Source of the DNA: Octopus vulgaris
Taxonomy: Eukaryota
NCBI GenBank assembly: GCA_951406725.2
Contig: OX597816.1
Coordinates: 112,468,001-112,532,000 of the forward strand
Direction of reading: 5' to 3'
DNA: 64,000 bases
Shown: one piece after another, positions 7,085 to 63,588 of the stretch
Layout: the number at the start of each line of letters is the position of its first letter
Numbering within the stretch: position 1 is the first letter of the stretch
Program-made: the position numbers and the translations under genes
The notes under the pieces: generated by a model
The model's database searches: none
What the model was told of the DNA's origin: nothing
What the model saw: the letters and a program-made list of their open reading frames with translations, nothing else

Positions 7085-7116
<32 letters not shown>

Positions 7117-7180
7117 ATGTGTGTAAGTATATATAGGTATAAGAATGTGTATTTATGTGTGTGTATGTGTATATATATAT

Positions 7181-7540
7181 CATCATCATCGTTTAACGTC
7201 CGTTTTCCATGCTAGCATGGGTTGGATAGTTTGACCGGGATCTGGGAAGCCAGGAGGCTGCACCAGGCTCCAGTCTGATCTGGCAATGTTTCTACCGCTG
7301 GATGCCCTTCCTAATGCCAACCACTCCGTGAGTGTAGTGGGTGCCTTTTACATGCCACCAGCACAGGTATCACATCTACAATTTCCATTTGATATTTATT
7401 TTGATGTTGATATACTTGACTCAATAGGTCTCCTCAAGCACAGCAGGTCACCCTACGAACCAAGGTAAACACAGCAGGTCGTTCTGCAATCAAAGGTACT
7501 TTGGAGGGGCTGGGGCTATGCGAAACTGGTGCAGGAAGCA

Positions 7541-7840: not shown

Positions 7841-7930
7841 ATATATATAAATGGAGTTAAATGCAGGTGTTATTCAAATATATGTTTACAATGGCTAAAC
7901 AGGTATCTCCAACTAGCAGGCCATGTTACA

Positions 7931-7971
7931 CCAGACTGATGACGAGCAAAGACTCAGAAACCAGTCTCTGG
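7931..7971 (+). ncRNA. Minimal type-I hammerhead ribozyme with intact core
   Basis: ccaga CTGATGA cgag-caaaga-ctca GAAA c-ca-GTC tctgg; stem I CCAGA/TCTGG; GUC cleavage triplet at 7964-7966. Confidence 0.75.
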
Positions 7972-8281
7972 GTGCAGGCTTAGCTGGGTGGAGGTGCTTA
8001 TTTCTCCCTTGTAAACATAAGGACACAGGAGATGTGCCAAGGCCAACAGGAAGCGTTGATGCTTCGTAGGGCTAAATAACAGAGGTGTGATTCTCTTCAT
8101 GGGACTGTTACATTAAGTTGATAGTATACAACTACTTTATCGTATCACTACTGCTTATATCTGTCTGAGATATTTAGAAATGTAATATTTCTATTTTTGT
8201 AATCAGTGGATTTATTTCACTAGAATTCTTATATGTTTACAATGGCTAGCCAGGCATCTCCAACTAGCAGGCCATGCTACT

Positions 8282-8322
8282 CCAGATTGATGATGAGCAA
8301 AGACTCAGAAACTAGTGTCTGG
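8282..8322 (+). ncRNA. Minimal type-I hammerhead ribozyme, mutated copy
   Basis: ccaga TTGATGA tgag-caaaga-ctca GAAA ctaGTG tctgg; C3>U and a GUG triplet predict inactivity. Confidence 0.65.
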
Positions 8323-8485
8323 GTGCAGGCTTAGCTGGGTGGAGGTGCTTGTCACCCCCTTGTAAACATAAGGACACAGGAGATGTTTCAAGGCTGACAG
8401 GAAGTGTTGATGCTTCCTAGGGCTAAATAGCAGTGGTGTGATTCCCTTCATGAGACTGTCACATTAAGTTGACAGTATACAACTA

Positions 8486-8521
<36 letters not shown>

Positions 8522-8544
8522 ATCTATATATATATATATATATA

Positions 8545-10415
8545 TCATCATCATCATCATCATTTAACGTCCGCTTTCCATGCTAGCATGGGTTGGGCGG
8601 TTCAACTGGGGTCTGGGGAGCCCGAAAGCTGCACCAGTCCAGTCAGATCTGGCAGTGTTTCTACAGCTGGATGCCCTTCCTAACGCCAACCACTCCGAGA
8701 GTGTAGTGGGTGATTTTATGTGCCACCGACACAGGTGCCAGACGAGGCTGGCAAACGGCCACGATCGGATGGTGTTTGTCATGTGCCCACTGCACTGACT
8801 ACAGCACTGATGGATTTCTTGTGTGCCACAGGCACTGGTACCACAAGATACAAATTCCATTGATGTTCATCTATTTTGTCTATTTGATTTGATTTGATTT
8901 GATTTTCACTTGCCTCAACCGGTCTTCACAAGTGTCACAAGAAGGAAGGTATGCACAGGTGGACTGACTAGTCTTGCCGGGTCTTCGGAAGGTTTGTTAC
9001 GTGCCCACAGCACGGAGGCCAGTCGATGCGGAACTGGCTACGGCCATGTTCGGATGGTTCTCTTGTGTGCCACCGGCACTAATTTCCACAAAGATACAGA
9101 TTCCATTGATGTTCATCTATTTTGATTTGTTTTGATTTTGATTTTCACTTGCCTCAACAGGTCTTCACAAGTGTCACAAGAAGGAAGGTATGCACAGGTG
9201 GACTGACTACGTCCCAGGTAGGGGCCATGGGTTATGGCCTGACTAGTCTTGCCGGGTCTTCGGATGGTGTTTTTATGTGCCACCGACACAGGTGCTAGAT
9301 GAGGCTGGCGAACGGCCACGATCGGATGGTGTTTGTCATGTGCCCACAGCACGGAGGCCAGTCGATGCGGTACTGGCTACGGCCACTTTCGGATGGTTTT
9401 CTCTTGTGTGCCACCGGCACTGGTACCACAAAGATACAAATTCCATTGATGTTCATCTATTTTGATTTGTTTTGTTTTGATTTGATTTTGATTTTGATTT
9501 TCACTTGCCTCAACAGGCCTTCACAAGTATCACAAGGAGGAAGGTATGCACAGGTGGACTGACTACGTCCCAGGTAGGGGCCATGGTTTATGGCCTGACT
9601 AGTCTTGCCGGGTCTTCGGATGGTGTTTTTATGTGCCACCGACACAGGTGCTAGATGAGGCTGGCGAACGGCCACGACCGGATGGTGTTTGTTATGTGCC
9701 CACAGCACGATGGCCAGTGATGCGGTACTGACTACGGCCATGTTCGGATGGATTCTTGTGTGCCACCGGCACTGGTACCACAAGCAGTACTGACTACTTT
9801 TTATGTGCCACCGACACAGGTGCTAGACGAGGCTGGCGAACGGCCACGACCGGATGGTGTTTGTTATGTGCCCACAGCACGATGGCCAGTGATGCGGTAC
9901 TGACTACGGCCACGTTCGGATGGATTCTTGTGTGCCACCGGCACTGGTACCACAAGCGGTACTGACTACGGCCACGTTCGGATGGATTCTTGTGTGCCAC
10001 CGGCACTGGTACCACAAAGATACAAATTCCATTGATGTTCATCTATTTTGATTTGTTTTGATTTTCACTTGCCTCAACAGGTCTTCACAAGTGTCGCAAG
10101 AAGGAAGGTATGTACAGGTGGACTGACTACGTCCCAGGTAGGGCCCACGGGTTATGACCTGACTAGTCTTGCCGGGTCTTCGGATGGTGTTTTTATGTGC
10201 CACCATGTTCCCACAGCACGGAGGCGAGTCGATGCGGTACTGGCTACGGCCACGTTCGGATGGTTTTCTTGTGTGCCACAGGCACTGGTACCACAAAGAT
10301 ACAAATTCCATTGATGTTCATCTATTTTGATTGATTTTCACTTGCCTCAGCAGGTCTTCACAAGTGTCACAAGAAGGAAGGTATGCACAGGTGGATCGAC
10401 TACGTCCCAGGTAGG
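8545..10415 (-). mobile_element. RTE-tail-derived non-autonomous element with nested higher-order tandem repeats
   Basis: RTE 3' tail at 8545-8740; block TTCACTTGCCTCA(A/G)C recurs near 8905, 9144, 9500, 10063 and 10337; many TGTGCCACC modules; (TA)n on both flanks. Confidence 0.85.
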
Positions 10416-19245: not shown

Positions 19246-19276
<31 letters not shown>

Positions 19277-19281
<5 letters not shown>

Positions 19282-21576
19282 GCCTGGAAAGCCTGGAAGG
19301 ATGGGGGCAGCAGGGAACTGTACCAGATAGCCAAAAGGGAGGCTGGGCGGCAGGTATACATAGCCAAAGACGTAGCAGAAAAGAAGAAGTTTGCCAATGT
19401 CCAGCGATGCGAGGATCAAAGAGCTGAAGTATTTCGGATTGCCAGACAGTGTGTCAGAGAAAATAGTGATGTTATAGGAGAGAAATGTGTCCGCATGGAT
19501 GATGGGGCACTTGCTTTTACTGCTAGTGAAAAGAAAGAGGCTTGGAGAAGCCATTATGAAAGACTGCTGAATGAGGAGAATGAATGGGAGGAGGAGAGCC
19601 TGCCAAATGTTGACCCAGTAGAGGGACCAGCTACCCGAATAGACAGCTCCCTTGTAGATAAGGCAATTAAGGATATGAAACCAGGCAAAGCCCCTGGCCT
19701 ATCAGGAATCACTGCTGAGATGCTTAAAACAGCTGGCTATGTGGGCCATGCCATAGTCACCCGCATTGTAAACCAGGTAGTTCACAATGGAGTCATACCC
19801 AATGACTGGTGCAGCAGCACCATAGTCAACTGCTACAAGGGTAAGGGTGATGCTCTAGATAGAAATAACTACAGAGGTATCAAACTGTTGGACCAGGTGA
19901 TGAAGGTCTCAGAGAAGGTCATAACCCATCTCATTAGGGAGAGAATTTGTTTAGATGAAATGCAGTTCGGTTTTGTACCAGGTAGAAGCACCACTGATGC
20001 TATATTCCTGGTCCGACAACTGCAGGAGAAGTACCTAGCTAAAGATAAACCCCTCTACATAGCTTTTGTAGACTTGGAGAAAGCCTTTGACAGGGTTCCC
20101 CGTTCCCTCATCTGGTGGTCGATGTGGAAAATGGAGATTGAAGAATGGCTAATAAGGGCTGTACAGGCTCTATACAGAGAGGCTGTCAGCAAGGTTAGGA
20201 TTGGCAACGAATATAGTGAAGAATTCCGGGCAGAAGTAGGTGTGCACCAGGGCTCAGCCCTCAGTCCCCTTTTATTCATCATAGTCCTTCAGGCAATAAC
20301 AGAGGAATTCAAAACGGGATGCCCCTGGGAGCTCCTCTATGCCGATGACCTAGCTCTCATAGCAGAATCACTACCGGAACTAGAAGAGAAATTTCGGGTG
20401 TGGAAGCAAGGGTTGGAATCAAAGGGCCTTAGAATAAATGTAGCAAAGACCAAAGTATTAGTAAGCAGCAAGAGGTACTCAGCACACACCCCCTCGGGTA
20501 GGTGGCCCTGCTCAATCTGTAGGAAAGGTACAGGTAGAAACTCCATAAGATGCACCCAATGTAAGTTATGGACACATAAGAGGTGCAGCAACATTAAAGG
20601 GAAATTAACAGATAAGATAGCTTTCATGTGCGGCAGATGCACAGGGACAATAGACACAACAGACACTCAGAAAACAGATTCCATCACACTCCAGGGAGAG
20701 AAACTAGAAGTAGTTGAGAGTATCACCTCTAGAATACGAATAGCCTGGGCAAAGTTCAGAAAGCTCCTACCCCTACTGGCAACAAAAGGTCTCTCCCTCA
20801 GAGCGAAAGGTAGATTGTATGATGCATGTGTGCGAACTGCCATGCTTCACGGTAATGAAACATGGGCAGTGACTGCAGGGGACATGCGTAGACTTGAAAG
20901 AAATGAAGCTAGCATGATCCGCTGGATGTGTAGTGTCAGTGTGCACGCAAGACAGAGTGTAAGCATCCTAAGAGAAATGCTGGATATAAGAAGCATCAGA
21001 TGTGGTGTGCAAGAGCGACGCTTGCGATGGTATGGTCATGTGCTGCGGATGGATGAAGAGAGATGTGTGAAGAAGTGCCACTCCCAAACAGTTGAAGGTA
21101 TCAGGGGGAGAGGTAGACCCAGGAAGACATGGGATGAGGTAGTCAAGCATGACCTCAGAGCATTGGGCCTCACTGAGGCAATGGCGAAAGACCGAGATCT
21201 CTGGAGATATGCTGTGACTGCAAAGACCCGGGCTGCTTTCTGCAGCAATTCCACATACCCCCTACCCATTCAAAGTACCCCGGATCCCCAAAGTACCCCG
21301 GACCCAGTTGCCCCCGTGCCGCTGGCACGTTAAAAGCTCGAACCGATCGCGACCAATGCCGGACCCCCCAGCCCCTGTGCAGGTGGCACATAAAAAGCAC
21401 CCAATCCACTCATGGAGTGGTTGGCGTTAGGAAGGGCATCCAGCCGTAGAAACTCTGCCAAATCAGACTGGAGCCTGGAGCGGCCCCTGGCTTCCCAGAC
21501 CCCGGTCGAACCGTCCAACCCGTGCTAGCGCGGAAAACGGACGTTAAACGATGATGATGATGATGATGATGATGAT
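19277..21576 (+). mobile_element. 5'-truncated RTE-clade non-LTR retrotransposon
   Basis: RT ORF, structured 3' UTR and (GAT)n tail; endonuclease domain missing. Confidence 0.92.
19279..21333 (+). CDS. RTE reverse transcriptase ORF (partial) with an embedded PHD finger
   Basis: NYRGIKLL, QFGFVPGRST, FVDLEKAFDRV, GVHQGSALSPLLF, LYADD; C4HC3 motif at 20509-20640; RRLRWYGHV and RGRPRKTW at the C-terminus. Confidence 0.9.
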
Positions 21577-23471: not shown

Positions 23472-23586
23472 GGTGATGCATGACTCAGTGGTTAGAGCAC
23501 TAGGCTCAGAATCACACGGTAGTGAGGTTGATTCCCAGACCTGGCTGTGTTGTGTTCTTGAGCAAGACACGTTATTTCACATTGCT
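23472..23586 (+). mobile_element. tRNA-derived SINE family C head (Meta/CORE-like core)
   Basis: A-box TGACTCAGTGG, B-box GGTTGATTCCC, then TGTGTTCTTGAGCAAGACAC. Confidence 0.7.
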
Positions 23587-24052
23587 TTCCATGCTGGCAT
23601 GGGTTGAACGGTTTGACTGAGGACTGGCAAGCCAGGAGGCTGCGCTAGGCTCCAATCTGTTCTGGCAGGGTTTCTACAGTTGGATTCCCTTCCTAATGCC
23701 AACTACTCCGAGAGTGTAATGGGTGCTTTTTACGTGCCACCAGCATGGGGGCCAGGCAGCACTGGCAGCGACCACACTCAAATGGTGCTTTTTATGTGCC
23801 ACCCGCATGGGAGCCAGTCAAGCAGCATTGGCATCAACCATGCTCGTATGGTACTTTTAATGTGCCACTGGCATGGGAGCTGGTCAGGTGGAATTGGCAT
23901 CAACCACACTCGGATGGTGCTTTTTATGTGCCACCAGCATAGAAGCCAGTCAGGCAGCACTAGCATCAATCATGTTCGAATGGTACATTTTATGTGCCAC
24001 CGGCATAGGAGCCAGTCAGCTAGCACTGGCACCGACCATGCTCGAATGGTGC
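23586..24052 (-). mobile_element. RTE-tail derivative with five modules of ~66 bp
   Basis: GTGCC anchors at 23734, 23796, 23862, 23928 and 23994. Confidence 0.85.
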
Positions 24053-31238: not shown

Positions 31239-31603
31239 ATGTATGTATATGTATGTATGTATATGTATGTATGTATGTATGTGTATGTATGTATGTATGT
31301 ATGTATATATATATATGTATGTATATATATGTGTATGTGTATATATATATGTATGTATATATATGTGTATGTGTATATATATGTGTATGTATATGTATAT
31401 ATTTATGTATGTATATAGATGTATGTATATGTATATATTTATGTATGTATATAGATGTATGTATATGTATATATTTATGTATGTATATATATATGTACAT
31501 ATATTTATATGTGTAAATAGAGATATGCATGTATGTATATATGTATATATATATGTACATATATTTATATGTGTAAATAGAGATATGCATGTATGTATAT
31601 ATA
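30647..31603. repeat. ~950-bp compound (TA)/(TATG) satellite with 23-, 36- and 60-bp higher-order units
   Basis: TATATATAATGTATATATATGTG repeats; 31490-31603 is a 60-bp duplication. Confidence 0.95.
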
Positions 31604-31840
31604 TCATCATCATCGTTTAACGTCCGTTTTCCGCGCTAGCACGGGTTGGACGGTTTCGACCGGGGTCTGGGGAACTAGGGACTGCCCCAGGCTCCAGTCT
31701 AGTCTGGCAGAGTTTCTACAGCTGGATGCCCTTCCTAACGCCAACCACTCCGCGAGTGTAGTGGGTGTTTTTTACATGCCACCTGCACAGGTGCCAGAGG
31801 GGTCTGGCATCGGCCACATTCGGATGGTGCTTTTTATGTG
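31604..31840 (-). mobile_element. RTE 3'-tail fragment (young)
   Basis: catcatcgtttaacgtccgttttccgcgctagcacgggttggacgg is nearly identical to the reverse complement of 21505-21560. Confidence 0.9.
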
Positions 31841-32089: not shown

Positions 32090-32393
32090 CGCGAATACAC
32101 GATGGTTGATGAATACACGAGAGGTGAGATGGATAATGGATAAATTAGTTAAAATAATTAGATAGATATAGAAATTAGTTAAAAATAGTTAGATAGATAA
32201 GAAAGCATGTATGATTGATGGAGAAGTGAAAATAAATAAGCATTCAACTTATCTGCTAGATGAATGAATGAATGAATGAATGAAAGAGCAAAAGTTTGGG
32301 GCTGCGTTTTTTTAAGTAAAGCTTGTCCGGAAGAAGAAGGCGCGAATACACGATGGTTGATGAATACACGAGAGGCGAGATGGATAATGGATA
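32090..32393. repeat. 53-bp direct repeat, period 251 bp
   Basis: cgcgaatacacgatggttgatgaatacacgagagg(t/c)gagatggataatggata at 32090-32142 and 32341-32393. Confidence 0.85.
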
Positions 32394-32430
32394 TATATAT
32401 ATATGTGTGTGTGTATATATATATATATAT

Positions 32431-34400
32431 AAACTCCAAAACAACATGATGTTATCATCAATAGTCAGCAAAGAGCTGAAGAGGCCTGGGCCATTGAGAA
32501 GATCAAACTCAATCCCAAAGTGTTCTTTTCATTTGCAAAAAAACACAGTCAATGGTTCTACTGTTGGCCCTCTGATTGATGCAAATGGTACTCTTCAAGA
32601 CAATGCCAAAACCATGGAAGAGATATTGCAGAAACAATATTGCTCTGTTTTCAGCATTCCTGACATGATTGATCTGGGCTGTATCAGTGATGTTACTCCC
32701 CAATACACTTTATCGGACATAACCTTTGGCGCTCCTGATGTCTTAGCAGTAATAAAGGAAATGAAGCATCATTCAGCAGTAGGTCCCGATAGGTTCCCTG
32801 CTTGTGTCCTGAAGATGTGTCAAAACCAACTTGCACCCCATCTAGCCAATCTGTGGCGGAACTCACTGGATGCTGGATATATACCAGAAGACCTTCTATC
32901 CCAGGCTGTTGTCCCAGTTTTCAAAAAGGAAACAAATCGCTTGCCGTGAATTACCGTCCAATCTCACTCACCTCTCATATCATTAAGGTATTTGAGAGAG
33001 TGCTGAGATCGCGTATGACTCACTTCCTTGAGAGTCATAATATGCTGAACTCCAACCAGCATGGATTCCGTAATGGGAGGGATTGCCTGATGCAGCTGCT
33101 GCACCATTTTGATGACATTTTGAGAGCCTTGGGAGAGGGTTCCAACACTGATGTCATCTACCTTGATTTCAGCATGGCCTTTGACAGGGTTGATCATAAG
33201 ATCCTTCTGAGAAAGCTGTCCAATATTGGTGTCACTGGAAAGCTGCTGCAGTGAATCAAGTGCTTCCTGTCTAACAGAACCCAACATGTTGTAGTCGAAG
33301 GAGTCAAATCCAGCCCAGCCAAAGTCAGCAGTGGTGTCCCACAAGGCACTGTGTTGGGCCCACTCCTCTTCATCATCTACATAAATGATATTACTGACAC
33401 CATCAAACACAGTAACATCAGAACCTTCGCTGATGATTCCTAGCTCCAGAAGGTCATCAATGGCGTGGATGACCGAATAAGCCTTCAGTTAGACCTACTG
33501 GCTGTTGTCCAATGGGCAGAAAAGAATAACATGCTGCTAAACGAAGACAAATTCAAACTAATCCACTTTGGAAGGGAGGATGCTCTGAAACTCCCATACT
33601 CCATTCCTTCTGGAGAAATTCTCATGGCGTCCAACAACATCAGAGACTTGAGAGTAACAGTGGACAACAACATAAGCTGGGCTACACATATAAGCAGCAA
33701 AGTTGACATGGCCCGCAGAATGTGTTCCTGGATTCTCAGAACCTTCCAGTCGAGAGATTCCCACACTATTATCCTTCTCTTCTCCACTTTTGCCCGACCC
33801 CACCTTGAATACTGCTGTCCACTGTGGTCTCCCTACACAAAACAAAATATTATGAGAATTGAAGCTCCCCAAAGGTCAATCACAAAAAAGATAGATGGCA
33901 TGTCAGACCTTGACTACTGGGGTAGACTAGAGAAGCTGAAACTGTATTCACTCCAACGACGCCGTGAACGCTACATTATCTGTATGATGTGGAAAATATT
34001 CCATCAGCACTGTCCGAATGATGTTGGCATCACCTTCAAAATACATCCAAGGCTTGGACCACGTGCCATCCGTCCACAACAAAAATCTAAATCGCATCAC
34101 ATAACGACAATACGGCACAACTATTTCACCTCAATTGGACCCGCTCTCTTCAACATTACACCAGGACACATCAAAAAAGAAACTGACCACACAAAATTCA
34201 AGAAGTCTTTGGACAAATTCCTTCAAACAGTCCCAGACAAACCACCCACACCCGGATATGTCTCCGCAAACAATAACTCTCTGCTCGAATGGGCCTTGGT
34301 GCCCAAATCCTGAATTGAAAGACTTCGCCAGGTGGTGCTATTAAGTTAGACATGGCCTGGGCCAATACTGGCCAAAACCTTTCTAAGTTATTCTAAGTTA
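32431..34400 (+). mobile_element. 5'-truncated CR1-like LINE with disrupted RT
   Basis: NYRPISLTS, QHGFR, YLDFSMAFDRVDH, GVPQGTVLGP, FADD, RPHLEYC; frameshift near 32935 and stops at 33252 and 33441; tail (TTCTAAGTTA)2; (TA)n on both sides. Confidence 0.9.
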
Positions 34401-46020: not shown

Positions 46021-47794
46021 TGATTATCAGTTAATAAAAATATATTAAAAATGATAAGAGCAACTAACTTGATGATTCAGACCCTGGAGATGATTCAATA
46101 TTCAATAACAACTCATAAATGAAGCATCAACATTTAGGGATTAATATATCATTCTTTTAAGGAACATTTATAAAAATTCTCCATCATATCGTGACACATC
46201 TTTGGCTTTATAACATAAACTTAATGGGGTTAACTTTCACTGAAAGATGTCTTGATGCAAACATATTTGTATGACATGATTGTAAACTACAAAATAGATT
46301 TGAAACAGAATAAAGGAGAAGGAGAATATGAATGATTTATGATTCACTCATAGATCAAATTCCATTGAGGAGTGACATAAATTAGTCTCACTCATGGAAA
46401 TATGTTTTCAAAGAATTCATACAATTCTGGAACTGGACATCATAGAGGTGGAAGTCAACTCATGATGATGAAAGACTACTTCATAAACTCAGTAAATTCA
46501 TAGAAACATTTCAAGAGTCCGAAAAGTTCCTGTGCGTGCATTTGTTTTGAGTGGATAAAGTGTTGCATAGCACTGAACTCACTTTTCAATGCAATCAGCT
46601 ATAAAACGAGTGGAAGAACTGAGATGAAGATGATCAGAAACCAACTGCACTTTAGGATTTTTTATATGAATTTACCTTTTCCTTGAAAGGAGTTCTACTT
46701 AGAACTAGAACTAACATTCTAGTTAGGGTCCCATAGCTGGGACCTTAACAGGTGCTACTACTCCAAGTCAGAGTAGACCTAGGGAACAATTGTGGCTAAA
46801 CCCTGGAACTCAAGTTTTACCCTGGACATGGACATCATAGTGGGGTGTGTTTATTTGCCACTAAAAACTGGATTACATATACTCCTATCAAATTACGAAC
46901 AGGGTAAAATGCTTTATACTAGGCGATCTTAAGATAGATACTAAAACAAGAAATTGTTGCTCAAAAGCATGTACGGTGTGGTAACATGTAGCATGCTGTC
47001 ACTAATTATTTTGCTACCTATGTTAATCACAGGCAAATGAAGATACCCTCTCACACCTGTCATCTTACAGAACATTTAGTATGCAATAGTAAGAGTAAGA
47101 TGAAATGCCTCGCTCAAGGACATAGTGTAGCATGTCACCTGGTCTGAGCCCAACATCTTAACTGCTCAGCTACATTTTAATGGCTAAATTGACTGTTTTT
47201 TAAACTTATGATAAAGGTTTCAAACTTTGGCACAAAGCCAGCAATTTGTACTGAATGATACAGTTTACTGAATTAATTCTAGTACATGGCTGAATAATTT
47301 TTTTTTATTCGAAAGGTGATGTCAATCCTGGTAAGTCTGGAACTCAGAATGTAGGAACTAAAGCAGTAAAAGACAATTAGTCCAGTATTGTACTATTTTG
47401 GGAGTCTACTACCTTCTTCACTTTATATTATATCATTGAAAAATTTTGTTGCAAACACTGCAAAACACACAGTTAGCTTCTGGGAGATTAGAACTGTTAA
47501 TATGGTTTCAATCTACCTATACTGATTATTAGTTAAGGAAAGACATGGATGCTACAATACCTTATATCCTCACCCTTAGCAATTGTCCTTAACAGAAAGA
47601 TCTCTGTATTGAAAAATTATAAATATGTTGTGTATGGGAAACTCTTGGATAAATCTTGTTACCACTGCCTCAGTTTTACACTTTTTAGCTAATTAAAAAG
47701 TTAAGAATATAAGACACATTCATTCATAATAAGGAAAAGCATGCATACATTATTTACATTTGACAGATACTTGTCCTCGTCTTGTTTGTTGTTC

Positions 47795-47838
47795 ACACAA
47801 CATTTTGGCTGATATACCCTCCAGCCTTCATTGGGTGT
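47795..47838 (-). ncRNA. Minimal hammerhead, decayed (left arm)
   Basis: acac CCAATGA a ggctg-gagggtatat-cagcc AAAA tg TT gtgt. Confidence 0.55.
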
Positions 47839-47926
47839 CTTGGGGAAATTTTGAACCTAGGTTCTCATTCCTAAGGTATTTTTCAATGTTATTATTATTA
47901 TTATTATTAATTATTATTATTCAGGT

Positions 47927-47995
47927 CACTGCTTGGAATCGAACATGGAATCTTAGGGGTTAGTAGTCCATGCTCTTAACCACTATGCCATATGC
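47927..47995 (-). promoter_or_regulatory. tRNA-derived Pol III internal promoter (A and B boxes)
   Basis: Minus strand: TGGCATAGTGGTTAAGAGC (A-box) ... GTTCGATTCC (B-box). Confidence 0.75.
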
Positions 47996-48078
47996 ACTAA
48001 CCTGAATATTAATAAACAGCAATAATAGTATCAAAAAATACCTTAGGAATGAGAACCCAGGTTTGAAATTTCCCCAAG

Positions 48079-48122
48079 ATACCTAATGAAGGCTGGTGGG
48101 TATATCAGCCGAAACGTTATGT
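48079..48122 (+). ncRNA. Minimal hammerhead (right arm), G5>A variant
   Basis: atac CTAATGA a ggctg-gtgggtatat-cagcc GAAA cg TT atgt; palindromic stem III AACGTT. Confidence 0.65.
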
Positions 48123-50031
48123 TAACAACAAACAAGATGAGGACAAATATCTGTCAAATGTAAATAATGTATAAAATTCCTCATCTCTTAAATATAGATC
48201 TGTATTAAAGGCATGCATGTCACAAATATTTCATACCCCTTCTCTTAAAGTGGTAAGTTTTTACTGTTAGTCAAAAGTCACTGATACTGAAAAATTACTT
48301 TTGATTTATAGACATCTAATCATGTATGAGAATCACTTAACTAAAACTTGTTATTACTGCATCTCTTGTAAAGTTTCTAGTTAAAATCAAATTAAAGACA
48401 TGATGAGTTATAGTTAGTTGCAGAAATACATGAATCATTAATATGCTATGTAATCAATATACACGAATATATTCGTAGTCTTTTGTATTTGTTTTAAGGT
48501 TAATTTAATTTCTATAATTTTGTGCTCTTTCATTATCTTAGCTTTTTATCTTTAGTTTTAAAAAACGATTTCAGTAAGTAATTATTATTATCCAATCTTG
48601 GCAATGATTTTCTGTGTGATATTTGGAATATTAAAAAATAAGAATTAATTAATTTTATCCTAAATATATGTAGTTTTCTTTTGTTGTCATTTTCCTGAAA
48701 AAGAAAACAAAAGTAAAATTAATTGAATGTATTCTTTAATATTTTTTGTGTTGTATGTTGTAGGCAAGTTCGTGTATTTAAGTATAAATAAAGATTTCAC
48801 TTTCTCTTTTTGTTAAAATTTCTTTCTATCACTGTTTAAAATTATTTTGTGTGAAAGTTTTACAATTTTTATTCTAGAAATATAAACTAGACTATTAGAT
48901 AGTCTCCTTTTACACTTAAAGAAAAAAAATCTAAATTTCATTTCCTGAATATTTCTTCATTGTTTTTAGTTTTTAATTCTCTTTTATATTAATGTCCAAC
49001 TGCTAGAGGAGTCATGAATTTCCAGTATACTTCATGAATAATTCTTAATATTACAGAAAAAATATCACACTAGTTTTTTTTGTTTCATTGTTTGACTATT
49101 GATATTAGTTCTAATAGCATGATTATTTTCATATCGGTTTGCTGTATTTTCTGTAAGTTTCTACTTATACCCCCTCTTCCCTCTAGAAAAAAAAAGCTTG
49201 AAGCAAATGTGTTCACAGATTGTAAGATCTTTTACTGACTGATGATAGATGAAGGCAGATATTGTTAGCATCAATTTATATGTAAACTGAAGGAAGAATG
49301 AAATATGTATGTTATCATTTTTTATTGGCTTACATAATGTAAAGCCACCTGGTAGATTTTTATCTTCTGGTTTCAAGCAGTTACAGATTGTGAAGTTGGT
49401 TGTCAGCCAGATTTTTATGTCTAGCAAACACACCATAGTATAAACATAGCTTACATGAAACATAAAATGTATCTGTAGTTTGTAATGAACACTAAATCCA
49501 ACTGGTGTTTGTGCTGGTGTAAAAGCAAAGCGTCGAGAAATACATTTAAAAGTAGATCATGGACGATGAATCTTGTCTGTCATTTAAAATTGTTATGCAG
49601 TATTAATAAAATTGATCACTATCATTTATTGAGGAATTTGAATGAGTTTAGCTAAACTGAGTTTGAAACACCCGTACTGCAAAGAAAACTAAGACCACAA
49701 TTTAAAAAGAAAAAACTTTCCAGACTTGCAGTACAGATGTGCATACAAATGTCTACATTCCATGGTAAATGTAGCAAATACAATAAGAAAGAAGGCTTCA
49801 AAAATATGTAACATTTTTTAACAGTTCAATTTGAGGTTAAATAAACTTCATTAAGGGATAAAAATATCCAATGAATTTACTTGTTTCTTACCTGCTATTT
49901 ATTTTGAATATTAGTTTTAATAGTTAAAAATAGGTAATTAAATACACTGAGGTTTATATTTATTTAAGAAAAATAAGAAAATAGAGATAATTCAGTTAAT
50001 AATTATATTCATTACAAGAATAGACATAATC

Positions 50032-53817: not shown

Positions 53818-55590
53818 TCTTTTCTACTCTAGGCACAAGGCTCCAAAAGGAGGGAGCTAGTCGATTAGATCGACCCCAATACGCAACTGGTACTTAGTTA
53901 GTTAGTTAGTTAATTTGGCTCAAAAGCAAATAGCAAGGCCATGTAGGGGGACATGGAGTTAAGTACAGGGTGGTGTTCATGTAAAGAGTTCAGGCCACTT
54001 GAGGTCCAGGGAGGCTTTGAACAAAGTGGTCGTCGGCATCTTCACCATCTCGTCTGGCAGCTTGTTCCACGGATCCGCAACCCGGACGGAGAAAGCTCCT
54101 CTCCTTCGATTGAGATGAAATCGTCGCAGGTAGAGCTTTTCGGAATGACCCCGCAGCTGACGCTTTGGAGCAGGAGTGAAGAACAGCTCTTTCGAGAGGT
54201 TACACTTTCCGCTTATGATGTTGTGGGCGAGAATGAGATCACCACGGCGGCGGCGTTTTTCAAGAGAATAAAGGTCGAGCGTCCTCAGCCTTTCTTCGTA
54301 GGACAAATTTTTGAGACCATGAACCATGCGGGTAGCCAGCTTCTGGACTCTTTCGAGATGCTGTATGTCTTTGAGGAGATAAGGAGAAGAGGCTTGAATC
54401 CCATACTCCAATATGGGTCTCACCAGCGTGACATAGAGTGGTAGGAATATGGCTGCTGTGAGCATTCCGAATGACCGTCGAATCAAGAACAGAATTCCGC
54501 GTGCTTTGTTGGCAGCATGGATGCACTGGGCCGAAGGCAAAAAGGAGGAATCCACCAAGATACCCAGGTCCTTTACCTGATCGGTCCTCTCCAGCAGCAG
54601 ACGACCCGGCTCGAAATCAAGTTGAGTTGCAGGAGTAGAGCCGACAGGCAGATGACAGCACTTTGACACGTTCAGACACAGGTCCCAATCGTTAGACCAC
54701 TTCCAAATTTGGTGGAGGCATCGACGAAGATCCTCTATATTACCGCGAGGAGCGACCAGTTTGATATCGTCGGCAAATAGAAGGGTGTGTTGCATGAGGT
54801 CGTCAGGCAAGTCATTTATGAAGACTAAGAACAACAAGGGCCCAAGCACTGAACCTTGAGGCACGCCACTGCTCGCACTGGAGACGTCGGACCGCGAACC
54901 ATTAACTTGGACTTGGAAGGAGCGATCTGAGAGGAAGGCACCAACCCATCATATAATATCCGGATGGAAACTATATGCTTGAAGCTTGACAAGTAATAGG
55001 CGGTGGTTTACCGAGTCAAAAGCTTTGGCAAAGTCCAATAAAACGATGTCAACAGCATCACTATCATCGAGGATGCGCGTCACCAATTCTTCCATTACTA
55101 GTAAGTTGGTCAAGCATGATCTCTTCGGCACGAAGCCGTGTTGGGAATCAGAGATAGAGGCTGTGTTTAGGAGGTGGAGCATCATACTTTTCTTAAGGAT
55201 GGTTTCGAACATCTTGCTGATTATTGATGTAAGGGAAACCGGTCGGTAGTTAAGTGGGTCTTCGTGGCTCCCTTTCTTGAAAATTGGGCAGATTATCGCT
55301 GTTCTCCAGTCTGCAGGTATAACACCCGTCGCCAATGACATATTGAATAGTTGTGTTAAGGGCTCGCAGATGACCGGAGCCAACGCTTTGATAACCCGCG
55401 GGTGTATGCCGTCAGGGCCGTGACCCTTGTTGACATCGAGGCCTTGAATAACACGTTTGACTTCGTCCCGCGTGATGACCAAACTTAAAGGATAAAAAGT
55501 AAAGTCAACCTCAGTGGAATTTGAACTCATAACATAAACACAGACGAAATACAGCTAAGTATTTCGCCCAGTGTGCTAGCGTTTCTGCCT
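53818..55590 (-). mobile_element. SINE family B copy split by the CR1 insertion
   Basis: gtcgattagatcgacccc..ctggtactta | CR1 | aaaggataaaaagtaaagtcaacctcagtggaatttgaactc. Confidence 0.8.
53895..55486 (-). mobile_element. 5'-truncated CR1-like LINE, young, RT interrupted by a single stop
   Basis: GPDGIHP, NYRPVSLTS, QHGF, LDFAKAFDSV, PQGSVLGPLLF, FADD, KDLG, RPILEY, RRRGDLI; two ORFs in the same frame separated by TGA at 54949-54951; (AACT)n tail. Confidence 0.92.
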
Positions 55591-57755: not shown

Positions 57756-59710
57756 GAATAAAACAGTTACATCTCTCAGGACACTGCTTATGTTTTACAA
57801 GCACTCGACATTTTCTGTCTGCTATAAAACATGTCATATTGTTATGTGCATACGTTTAGTGAAATTGTTTCTAGTCTTTCATTTCTAATATGATTAAAGA
57901 GTAACCACATATTTATCATTATTGAATCTGATAATTATATTAATGTAGCAATATGTTTTAGACATAGTTATTAATTCTCATTGCTTGGGTCTTTGCCGTT
58001 CTTTGTTCTGTTGTTTCGTGATTATCAATTTATTTTATTACTGCAAATATTTTTCCTGATTCAACATATATCTAACTTCATTTTCCTGTAAGCACTTTTA
58101 ATTAAAAAGGGAATATTTGGAAGAAGTACTAAAAGTGATCAATTATAGTTTTGATTTGTGTAATTTTTCATGTGTAAAAGGTAGTTCAATGAATTAATAG
58201 TATTGCCATCTAAATTTTGACAATAGTAAATCTGGTTTTCATGTTATTGATTTAGTAATATAGGAAGGGAGGAGGTGATATCTTTTTATCATTATTAATT
58301 AACCCTGTTAATAGCTAGATGAGAAAATAATAATAATGATGATGATGATACCAAGCTGTCTATATGATATAAAACCTCCCATTTTAATGTACTCATATTC
58401 AAACCATAACTTCATCAGAATTTTATTTAAGAAAACATTGTTTCAAACGCTACTTTAATAATGGTAAAATTTAATTTATTGTTATTAAACAAGTCTTAAA
58501 GTCTTCAGAGTTCTTGATTATTCAGCAAATGTATTACATTGGAAATACATTTAAGGGTTAACACAAAAATGTTGAATCATGACTAGTTTTTAGTTATAAT
58601 TTTTGAATTTTCATATGATATCTTATTGCAATAAATATTTTCACTGATCTAACAAACAATAACAACTTCAGGTTCAGTCTGTAATTCACATTGAAAATAT
58701 TCGGTTAAAGAGATGGAAGTAACCAGCTTACTGTGCACTTAAGACGTGCTCTAGGGTCTTTATCACTGCTACAATTAATCTTGTGATATTTATTCTATTG
58801 ACTTTATAGTGATACATTGCTAATTCAGTCTTGGGAAGGTTTCTAAATCTGAAATGGAAACCTCAGAGACACTTATCGTTTATCTAATCCCGTCTGCATT
58901 AGAAACAGGAAACTTCAAAAGATAAAAACTGAGAGATCAGGTGAAAAGTAAGTGAGAAGGCAAATTTTAAGATAGTGTTTGTTTGCATTTATATTTTGTT
59001 CATTGGTTTTTAGAAAAAGGTGTTGTGCTTTATTTGAAGCTAGTTTCAGTTTGCAGTTTATTTCAGTAATACGTCTTCTCTGACTGGAATACTACTGTTA
59101 TTGAGTTTGTCAATGAGAGGATGTGAACCTACCTTTGAAAGCCTAATAAAACACTTGTAAGTTATGCAGTGGTTTGACTACTTACAGCAATAAAATTTAC
59201 TTCCTTCAGGTACCTCGTTGTAACTAGGTGGACTGCTCAGTTGAAACTTACATTTTTTTTTTTTTTGTCAAATTCTCAGGTCAGCTAAGCTGAAAGGGTT
59301 AACCTGGTTTGGTTCATGCACCAGATACACTTTGTCAACAGCAGTGTTTGTACATTACAATTAAGATATGATAGATGGTGTTTAAAACTCTAGAAGAAAT
59401 GCTATTTTAAAAAAATAAAACTGTTGTAGGAAAGTACATAGCAAAATATAATCCACTGCATTTTGCATTTTGCTTCATATTGTAAAATGTATGTAATATA
59501 ACTACGTGTTTATAGTCTGGTAGGCAGAGAAATAGATAAATTTCCTATGAAGTTAATGTTGGTGAAGAATTAATTTTCAAGTCAGAATACTGAACTCAAA
59601 ACTAAGCTTGATCCTTCCTTTATATGTAAATCCTTTTTTGGAATTTGTAATGTCTTATTCCAAGGTGTTTCTATTTCTTGGTTCTCTTTCAATGAAATGA
59701 GTTCCTGTAA

Positions 59711-60119
59711 TCATCATCATTATCATTGTTTAACGTCCGCTTTCCATGCTAGCATGGGTTGGATGATTTGACTGGGGGCTGGCGAACCAGATGGCTGCAC
59801 CAGGCTCCAATCTTAATCTGGCAGAGTTTCTACAGCTGGATGCCCTTCCTAACGCCAACCACTCTGAGAGTGTAGTGGGTGCTTTTATGTGCCACCGGCA
59901 CAGACGCCAGTTAGCTGCTCTGGCAACGATCATGCTCGGATGGTGCTCTTAGCACCCTACTAGCATGGGGCACAAGTGCCTGTAAGGCGATGCTGGTAAC
60001 TATCACAATCAAATGGTGCCCTTTTATGTGCCATTGGCACGGAAGCTGGTTAGCTGCTCTGTCAATGATCACACTCGTATAGTGCTCTTTGCACCCCGCT
60101 AGCACGGATGCCAGTCATC
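59711..60119 (-). mobile_element. RTE-tail derivative with modular repeats
   Basis: (CAT)n, TTTAACGTCCGC, then TGTGCCA modules. Confidence 0.85.
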
Positions 60120-62929: not shown

Positions 62930-63575
62930 CGCACCAGTCCACTTATGTGTGCCTTTCCTTCATTGGACACTAAACTCTGCTTGCGAAGACCTGTTGAAGC
63001 AAGTGAAATTAAAATTGAAATCAAATTCGATGACTGGCATCCATGCTAGTGAAGTACTAAGAGTACCATACGAGTGAGATCGTTGCCAGAGCAACAAGCT
63101 GGCCTCCATGCTAGTGGAACGCTAAGAGTACCATACTAGTGAGATTGTTGTCAGAGCAACAAGCTGGCTTCCATGCAGATGGCACATTAAAAACACCATT
63201 TGAGCGTGATCATTACCTGCGTCGCCTTACTAGCACTTGTGCTGGTGACATGTGAAAAAAAATTTGAGCGAGGTCGTTGCCAGTTCCACTGGACTGGCTC
63301 CTGTGCAGGTGACACATAAAAAGCACCATTTGAGCAAGGCTTTTGCCTGTACCACCAGACTGGCCCTCATGCCAGTGGCACGTAAAAGCACCCACTACAC
63401 TCTCGGAGTGGTTGGCGTTAGGAAAGGCATCCAGCTGTAGAAACTCTGCCAGATCAGATTGGAGTCTGGTGCAGCCATCTGGTGCAGCCATCTGGTTCGC
63501 TAGACCTCAGTCAAATCGTCCAACCCTTGCTAGCATGGAAAGTGGATGTTAAATGATGATGATGATGATGATGAT
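62930..63575 (+). mobile_element. RTE-tail derivative with modular repeats and (GAT)n tail
   Basis: gaagacctgttgaagcaagtgaa block, ~63-bp tandem modules, RTE 3' end. Confidence 0.85.
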
Positions 63576-63588
63576 AATGTGTTTCTGT

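Follow-up and report, generated by a model that had tools for sequence, protein, structure and literature searches.

We analysed a stretch of 64,000 nucleotides from the Octopus vulgaris genome (contig OX597816.1, positions 112,468,001 to 112,532,000 of the forward strand; hereafter referred to as the window), which contains, at positions 47746–48207, two inverted arms with hammerhead ribozyme folds around a tRNA-like segment. A preliminary description of this structure, made from the sequence of the window, had proposed an RNA polymerase III (Pol III)-driven short interspersed element (SINE) that borrowed the terminus of a Penelope-like element (PLE) and might set its RNA end by self-cleavage. 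Our analysis indicates that the proposed SINE is the pseudo-long terminal repeat (pseudo-LTR) of the PLE itself, because the tRNA-like head follows the stop codon of an open reading frame (ORF) for a reverse transcriptase (RT) with a GIY-YIG endonuclease (EN), and the arm opens the next copy of this ORF. The PLE origin of the feature is virtually certain. We estimate a probability of about 70% for the joint interpretation that it is a short PLE pseudo-LTR insertion with a tRNA-derived promoter, copied from an RNA begun by Pol III just upstream.

The Autonomous Element

Upstream of the head, several of the copies selected by the hammerhead motif continued as a reading frame, and a search of the genome (G000, 2.8 Gb) with this frame gave 4,980 candidates. 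An autonomous RT + GIY-YIG element with the sequence of the arms, for which the preliminary description had suggested a search, was thereby found: the majority consensus of 21 segments contains a single frame of 835 aa, the ATG of which lies in the arm, 34 bases ahead of the hammerhead core, and in one genomic copy 569 codons were open. The arms correspond to codons 1 to 41–53 of this RT + GIY-YIG frame, and the hammerhead is located within the first 25 codons. The head was found 29 bases after the ORF stop in 26 of the 30 best copies, which had been chosen by the ORF protein alone (BLAST); head and hammerhead are a fixed unit, as the preliminary description had supposed. Two of the four remaining copies had the first 12–22 bases of the head, one ended in the spacer, and one lacked both spacer and head. 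Of 30 loci selected with 5′ ORF DNA, 15 had the arm or the tail leading directly into the frame. The repeat unit (2.8 kb) has the order ORF, stop codon, 29 nt, tRNA-like head, (AAT)n and the ATG of the next unit.

The frame matched Pfam RVT_1 with an E-value of 2.7e-6, just under the cut-off, and no match to Pfam was obtained with the endonuclease piece alone; the Protein Data Bank (PDB) contained no relative of the frame. It shared 40% identity with P0069 over 575 aa, and was colinear with it through the GIY-YIG domain of P0069, which was above the cut-off. Protein relatives at an E-value of 1e-20 numbered 2,914 among the 7,990 scored, and in the full-length relative P0003 the peptide that overlaps the hammerhead is also present, close to the N-terminus. 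Inspection of the translation by eye revealed no zinc-finger-like motif of the kind described in PMC8557442 in the linker between the RT and EN domains. The absence of this motif separates Penelope/Poseidon from Neptune/Nematis (PMC8557442; here and below, statements taken from cited work concern the parts of each source that were available). The element has a single ORF with an RT plus a GIY-YIG domain at the C-terminus, a hammerhead-bearing pseudo-LTR arising from a partial tandem, and a tail at one end together with an inverted copy. It is, by predicted domain order and linker sequence, an EN+ PLE of the Penelope/Poseidon type.

Copies in the Genome and Hallmarks of Insertion

The genome search with the whole feature produced 6,523 candidates, 40 of which were scored, and the whole structure of the window was found again genome-wide at 83–86% identity. 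Exact CpG-free 20-mers occurred 865 times immediately upstream of the head, 5,148 times in the head and 9,103 times in the arm; from the latter number and a divergence of ~4.5% outside CpG, we estimate that there are ~20,000 arm copies. Two sets of copies were used for the analyses of structure. The palindrome set consisted of 28 aligned copies from the first search, with L017 (a duplicate place) and L023 (without a central head match) left out. The second set comprised 89 loci, corresponding to the first 92 of 2,166 motif matches, all on contig C1, after the removal of one duplicate and the merging of two pairs.

The junction between the inverted arm and the main unit varied copy by copy among the 28 aligned palindromes, and the arms are therefore not the terminal inverted repeats (TIRs) of a DNA transposon, one of the possibilities that would have overturned the earlier proposal. 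An inverted part was present in 59 of the 89 motif-selected loci and absent from the other 30. In the 50 loci with both outer ends, the tail was found on one arm in 47 cases, on neither in three and on both in none. Flanking direct repeats scoring at least 8 were detected for 45 of 80 diverging palindromes from both sets, versus 0.7% of 1,500 random flank pairs, and the target duplications of the family measured 8–16 bp. Insertion 3′ ends were located 117–135 or 145–165 bases into the ORF, and the short copies had a length of 250–290 bp. Inverted 5′ copies and a 30–40-bp tail at one end are marks of PLEs (PMC8557442). The one-sided tail, the variable inversion junction and the target duplications are all described PLE traits, and mobilization of the Penelope type with an inverted terminal copy, as originally proposed, is supported. 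The variants outside CpG that were common to both arms of one insertion (24 of 511, 4.7%, versus 1.5% between insertions) provide neither proof of a single template nor a sign of arm homogenization. In five loci (L059, L146, L156, L158 and L188), the palindrome was almost perfect and had its centre at the first bases of the head, which are self-complementary, as though the end of the cDNA had folded back and primed the inverted arm.

The Copy in the Window

The inverted arms reported at this place were confirmed by self-complementarity, with one pair at 47745–47896 and 48021–48172 (152 nt, 89% complementary) and an additional pair at 47889–47932 and 47994–48037 that extends them. The span of the element was corrected to 47746–48207; it is longer to the right than first described, the right arm bearing the family tail (~35 nt; 48173–48207, plus strand, by comparison with the consensus), which is found on this arm only. 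The 8-bp target duplication initially suggested, GCATGCAT, is part of the true one, which has 12 bp and one mismatch. Its left copy (47735–47746, plus strand, locus L001) has its last base in common with the element end, and its right copy (48207–48218, plus strand) was identified by flank comparison.

The main unit (47746–47995, minus strand) is a short pseudo-LTR copy running from the tRNA-like head to a tail-less 3′ end, with 92.4% identity to the family consensus (positions 2540–2787). Its tRNA-derived head (47922–47995, minus strand) begins at tRNA position 3 and has lost the cloverleaf, as judged by tRNA alignment and consensus comparison. The A box (47980–47990) and the B box (47935–47944), both noted previously on the minus strand, were verified in the sequence and are colinear with the D-arm and the T-loop, respectively, of host tRNAs. 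The head is followed on the same strand by the (AAT)n spacer (47890–47921), the length of which is variable in aligned copies and which separates the head from the start codon, and by codons 1–41 of the RT + GIY-YIG frame (47746–47868, with the ATG at 47868 and one interrupting stop), matching the N-terminal peptide region of the full-length homologue P0003. A minimal type-I hammerhead is located at 47795–47839 (minus strand). The inverted 5′ copy (47996–48207, plus strand; 91.6% identity to the consensus over 48005–48207) consists of the last bases of the head, a degenerate (AAT)n, the arm and the tail. It contains an inverted copy of codons 1–53 of the reading frame with two stops (48049–48207, plus strand, by consensus comparison) and a second minimal type-I hammerhead (48078–48122, plus strand).

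The copy in the window is a dead, short, 5′-inverted PLE pseudo-LTR insertion, ordinary for its family. Its unique flanks had no RNA depth in the ~6% of two runs that was covered. A contig from run X19 (organism B) covers window positions 48178–49852, comprising the tail end and the right flank, which is unique; it has 62 differences and suggests that the insertion is common to organisms A and B and older than their split.

The Hammerhead Ribozyme

The two hammerheads of the window are broken. The left one has AAAATGTT where GAAACGTT would be expected, and has lost G12 and C15.2 besides U4 and G5 (U4C, G5A, G12A and C15.2U); the right one has G5A and stem I mismatches, with ATAC/ATGT rather than ACAC/GTGT in stem I. 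The presence of a hammerhead motif in each arm, the broken cores CCAATGA and CTAATGA and the resulting inactivity of this copy all hold true; the fold drawn in the preliminary description does not, as it was a composite of two arms that differ in stem I and core. Neither fold was convincingly better than shuffled sequences (z −0.25 and −1.45), and Rfam identified neither a tRNA nor a hammerhead in the window or in six other loci.

The family core is intact, as anticipated from a CTGATGA consensus, with CUGANGA retained in 44 of the 56 arms of the 28 palindromic copies from the first genome search. The 33-nt hammerhead core, in which CTGATGA and GAAAC are intact, had 2,166 exact matches in the genome and its reversed control had none. 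In the family hammerhead, the cleavage triplet is GUU and stem II is preceded by an additional A. A CUGAAGA variant of the core was observed in 8 of 40 ORF-linked repeats versus 5 of 132 short copies, the latter figure being biased by motif selection.

The predicted hammerhead cut corresponds to base 70 of the ORF. Since insertion 3′ ends lie 50–95 bases downstream of this cut, none of the 89 anchor arms ended at it (with no 5′ or 3′ pile-up there by eye), and hammerhead mutants of an anole Poseidon element inserted without any effect of the mutation (PMC11167929), self-cleavage does not set the insertion end, and the proposal that it sets the end of the RNA was not borne out. The hammerhead would have remained uncleaved in the RNA templates that were copied.

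The tRNA-like Head and the Start Site

The family head aligned end to end (from position 1) with host tRNA genes, the best match being tRNA-Arg(TCG) (z 9.1), with an alignment score of 64 versus a maximum of 51 among 300 shuffles. The comparison set comprised 25 distinct host sequences from 30 loci, with the labels Arg, Ala, Thr, Cys, Lys and Glu only. ARAGORN found no tRNA in the window, and relaxed thresholds on the family consensus yielded only noise. A tRNA-Ile(AAT) was rejected as the parent of the head, as it had no match in the genome. The head is tRNA-derived by sequence only, its cloverleaf being lost. The tRNA-like segment of the preliminary description is therefore retained as an alignment to host tRNAs and dismissed as a fold, which both ARAGORN and Rfam missed.

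The 5′ ends of the copies accumulate at the head. Among the 52 copies reaching its 5′ part, 38 stopped within 28 bases, with a stop rate of 0.03–0.04 per base there, ~30 times the background of ~0.001 in the 3′ part of the head and in the ORF. Base by base, these ends were located at consensus positions 2530–2545, with a sharp outer edge 13–15 bases before the A-box T (2545); BLAST starts at 2519–2526 were mostly fold-back artefacts, and such rows were read by eye. The ends pile up at the head's far side, and not where a stall of the RT at a head structure would fall. A TATA-like motif, TTTATAA, overlaps the stop codon 30 bases upstream of the start and fits either polymerase. We consider a start site at the head to be highly likely.

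A run of four T residues (T4) is the stop signal of Pol III. The sense strand of the 2.8-kb consensus unit contained no T4 run, versus an expectation of 2.9–3.0 if amino acids and codon usage are preserved (P 0.03) and of 4.4 from composition (P 0.01), and T3 runs were not depleted (13 versus 15 expected). The density of T4 runs in real copies was 0.39 per kb in the 21 segments and 0.41 per kb in 14 further loci outside the consensus. Another PLE family of the same genome had 10–13 T4 runs per ORF (4 copies), and the 76 metagenome relatives with at least 900 coding bases (from a total of 80) had a median of 3.8 per kb, one of them having none. No A-box/B-box pair was found in the 500 bases after the match in any of these 76 relatives, 22 of which demonstrably reached their hammerhead. 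The co-occurrence of the head and of T4 loss rests on one family, because the genome contained no sister family closer to P0001 (best 70–71%). The 5′-end pile-up and the T4-free unit both fit the Pol III start that had been considered probable from the window. The use of Pol III by the element seems likely, and transcription by Pol III through the whole ORF is rather doubtful. The PLE-like family used as a control for T4 runs is abundant and much younger, with a protein identity of 94–99%, 8,645 candidates and frames of 800–850 codons (L243–L246, at G000 C3:86.38 Mb, C6:111.62 Mb, C5:72.30 Mb and C1:55.63 Mb; first encountered in L097:707–1033). We take it, by its motifs, to be Neptune-like.

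Proposed Mechanism

The short copies could arise as follows. TFIIIC would bind the A and B boxes in the pseudo-LTR, with the upstream neighbour providing TTTATAA 30 bases before the start. The RT-endonuclease of the element would nick AT-rich DNA, and reverse transcription would start internally, ~120 and ~155 bases into the ORF. Internal initiation, at 111–118 bases, has been described for the RT of anole Poseidon, in which the tail corresponds to the sequence separating two start sites (PMC11167929). In an RNA transcribed from a tandem copy, the RT start site would be present twice, once close to the 5′ end and once at the 3′ end. Priming at the site near the 5′ end would lead to run-off after ~250–290 bases and hence to abundant SINE-like copies, priming at the far site would yield 5′-truncated copies bearing the ORF, and priming on both target strands would generate head-to-head arms, one tailed and the other not. 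A broader and more tentative version is that the element captured a tRNA gene as a promoter, with end-to-end transcription by Pol III, the purging of terminators from its 2.5-kb frame and the production of its own SINE-like offspring by internal priming. The hammerhead at the start codon might then, equally tentatively, help an uncapped RNA to be translated or processed instead of setting the insertion end.

Alternative Explanations

An independent, self-propagating Pol III SINE making use of the Penelope enzyme, with the head being secondary in the element or the short copies now having their own masters, appears unlikely. Such a SINE would be consistent with the number of head 20-mers, six times that of the upstream spacer, with the tailed short copies, which hold the promoter and the RT start site without a terminator, and with an allele skew at one head position (see below); Pol III transcription combined with a hammerhead has been described for SINE-like repeats of Schistosoma (PMC6765202), and nonautonomous PLE derivatives are known (PMC8557442; bioRxiv 10.64898/2026.07.22.740005). 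However, the head is fixed in the autonomous element, the supposed body of the SINE is the ORF's own 5′ end, and the upstream TATA-like flank is lost in the short copies. Short and ORF-linked copies were alike in their divergence outside CpG (4.2–4.9%), no fixed diagnostic base distinguished them, and both head alleles occurred in both classes; motif selection confounds the skews between the two within the hammerhead. The most parsimonious reading has the short copies deriving from the same masters as the ORF-linked repeats. The idea of a SINE with a borrowed Penelope terminus is not supported, the head belonging to the autonomous element and the two classes of copies being equal in age without any fixed diagnostic difference. 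SINEBase defines SINEs as nonautonomous, non-coding elements of <700 bp with internal Pol III boxes, Pol III transcription and a partner long interspersed element (LINE) (PMC3531059). The 250–290-bp unit, its A and B boxes and its tRNA-colinear head agree with this definition, but the whole unit lies in the autonomous element rather than forming a nonautonomous family distinct from its partner, and this partner is not a LINE but a PLE, with PLE-type ends and inversions. A miniature inverted-repeat transposable element (MITE) or other DNA transposon with TIRs that happen to surround a tRNA-like piece would account for the long inverted arms and the target duplication, and has a negligible probability: the variable junction together with the linkage to the RT rules it out, the junction and arm lengths differing in every copy, 30 of the 89 loci lacking an inverted part, the outer ends being asymmetric with a one-sided tail, the arms encoding the start of the RT frame, and the length of the target duplications being variable. 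A non-LTR retrozyme, for which tandem hammerhead repeats would be required, was also rejected, head-to-tail short units being rare among the 89 loci (L049 and L192), most of which were single or head-to-head.

An ordinary RNA polymerase II (Pol II) promoter, in which the tRNA piece would be a relic captured at the start site and the short copies run-off products, is likewise improbable. The PLE promoters studied sit in the pseudo-LTR with an intron or an H3K4me3 mark (PMC8557442), a TATA-like motif is present 30 bases upstream, a protein-coding RNA needs a cap, and the T4 evidence reaches just P 0.01–0.03. Nevertheless, the start is placed exactly as a type-2 Pol III promoter would place it, the A and B boxes, like the distance between them, have been retained even though the cloverleaf has been lost, the unit is T4-free throughout whereas the repeats of relatives are T-rich, and the head region had no GT..AG joint among the minority of RNA joints that were listed.

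Several observations weigh against our preferred interpretation, that of a pseudo-LTR copied from a Pol III transcript. One head allele was enriched in short copies (65/94 versus 13/32, p 0.003, uncorrected), with both alleles in both classes, and this skew leaves room for a degree of independent amplification among the short copies. The T4 result is of modest strength and concerns one test family; G4 runs were absent as well (1.0–3.1 expected, P 0.30 and 0.045), and the coding stretch of L256, one of the 76 relatives, was T4-free in the absence of A and B boxes and next to a T-rich repeat. The 5′-end pile-up marks a start rather than a polymerase, and the TATA-like motif would suit Pol II too. 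Pol III RNAs are uncapped, which leaves protein production unexplained. RNA reads (unstranded, from same-label runs and from many copies) were equal on both strands and mostly continued into other sequence, and the sample of 89 loci was limited to contig C1 and picked by the exact hammerhead motif. Finally, the promoter and intron of D. virilis Penelope occupy this same place (PMC8557442).

Relationships with Known Elements

The octopus element resembles D. virilis Penelope and Anolis Poseidon PAc (PMC8557442, PMC11167929) in its single frame with an RT plus a GIY-YIG domain at the C-terminus. It shares with the Penelope/Poseidon PLEs partial tandems serving as pseudo-LTRs, an inverted 5′ copy, a 30–40-bp tail at one end and a hammerhead over the ORF start, the cut of which is unused as an insertion end; the 3′ ends are ~120 bases into the ORF here and 111–118 bases in Anolis PAc (PMC11167929). 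Unlike these elements, it has at its start site an A/B-box module of tRNA origin, its unit is T4-free, and most of its copies are of run-off length, starting at the module. The Penelope promoter overlaps a spliceosomal intron (PMC8557442), and none was seen here in an examination that was not rigorous.

The hammerhead is like the minimal PLE hammerheads of Cervera and De la Pena (2014, PMC4209133), with a type-I minimal fold, a short palindromic stem III and an unpaired base ahead of stem II. In the same article, minimal hammerheads that lie in pairs 100–700 bp apart on opposite strands were already attributed to truncated PLEs (PMC4209133). The octopus repeats differ from these in their tRNA-derived promoter, a feature not mentioned in the available part of that article. 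In Schistosoma Sm-alpha and Sj-alpha, a Pol III-type promoter also precedes a hammerhead in a short repeat, but these are nonautonomous tandem or dispersed repeats cleaved to monomers (PMC6765202), whereas the octopus sequence forms the terminal repeat of an element that encodes protein, with PLE scars and uncut ends. A Pol III module derived from a small RNA within a retroelement terminal repeat is also found in Helenus and Cassandra, which are terminal-repeat retrotransposons in miniature (TRIMs) and thus nonautonomous LTR elements (PMC10886601), unlike the autonomous PLE described here. Nonautonomous PLE derivatives are likewise known from retrozymes (bioRxiv 10.64898/2026.07.22.740005).

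The literature searched, to the extent that its text was available and with repeat-library sequences outside the search, contained no description of a tRNA-derived promoter within an autonomous PLE, and the available parts of the octopus repeat papers PMC13282606, PMC8967140, PMC4758252, PMC5804259 and PMC6962438 make no mention of such an element. The PLE structure itself is known, and the tRNA-derived promoter in the repeat of an autonomous PLE is the unusual part, as gauged by literature description only.

The octopus SINEs OR1 and OR2 have an Arg-related head and a size range similar to that of the short copies described here. Together with OK, they are the tRNA-derived octopus SINEs reportedly characterized by Ohshima and Okada in 1994. 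OR2 appears among the CORE SINEs (PMC4758252, PMC5804259), but the copies described here have the start of a PLE ORF as their body; the two are set apart by description only.

Other Repeats in the Window

Another abundant short repeat has at least seven copies in the window (7085–7368, 8526–8795, 21326–21561, 23584–24050, 31507–31840, 59710–59950 and 63303–63579), which are 75–88% alike and have (CAT)n/(GAT)n runs at their start or end; some of these copies run on into tandem units of 60–70 bp. A 351-bp direct duplication (90% identity) and a GC-richer complex tandem array were found at 7879–8487 and 8709–10415. An open frame of 695 codons at 19246–21330 is presumably the reverse transcriptase region of a LINE (RTE-type), and two broken LINE fragments on opposite strands (32320–34310 and 53980–55554) are, as we assume from their motifs, CR1-like.

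Implications

A Pol III promoter is considered a mark of SINEs, and autonomous retroelements are taken to be Pol II transcripts (PMC3531059). A PLE with a tRNA-derived promoter would blur the line between autonomous elements and their short parasites, and would provide a simple route for the origin of SINE-like families without SINE–LINE recombination. The octopus family also serves as a warning that part of the annotated SINE content of such genomes may be PLE terminal repeat. Two open questions concerning PLEs, the polymerase used by the pseudo-LTR and the purpose of the hammerhead, would be testable in one short construct.

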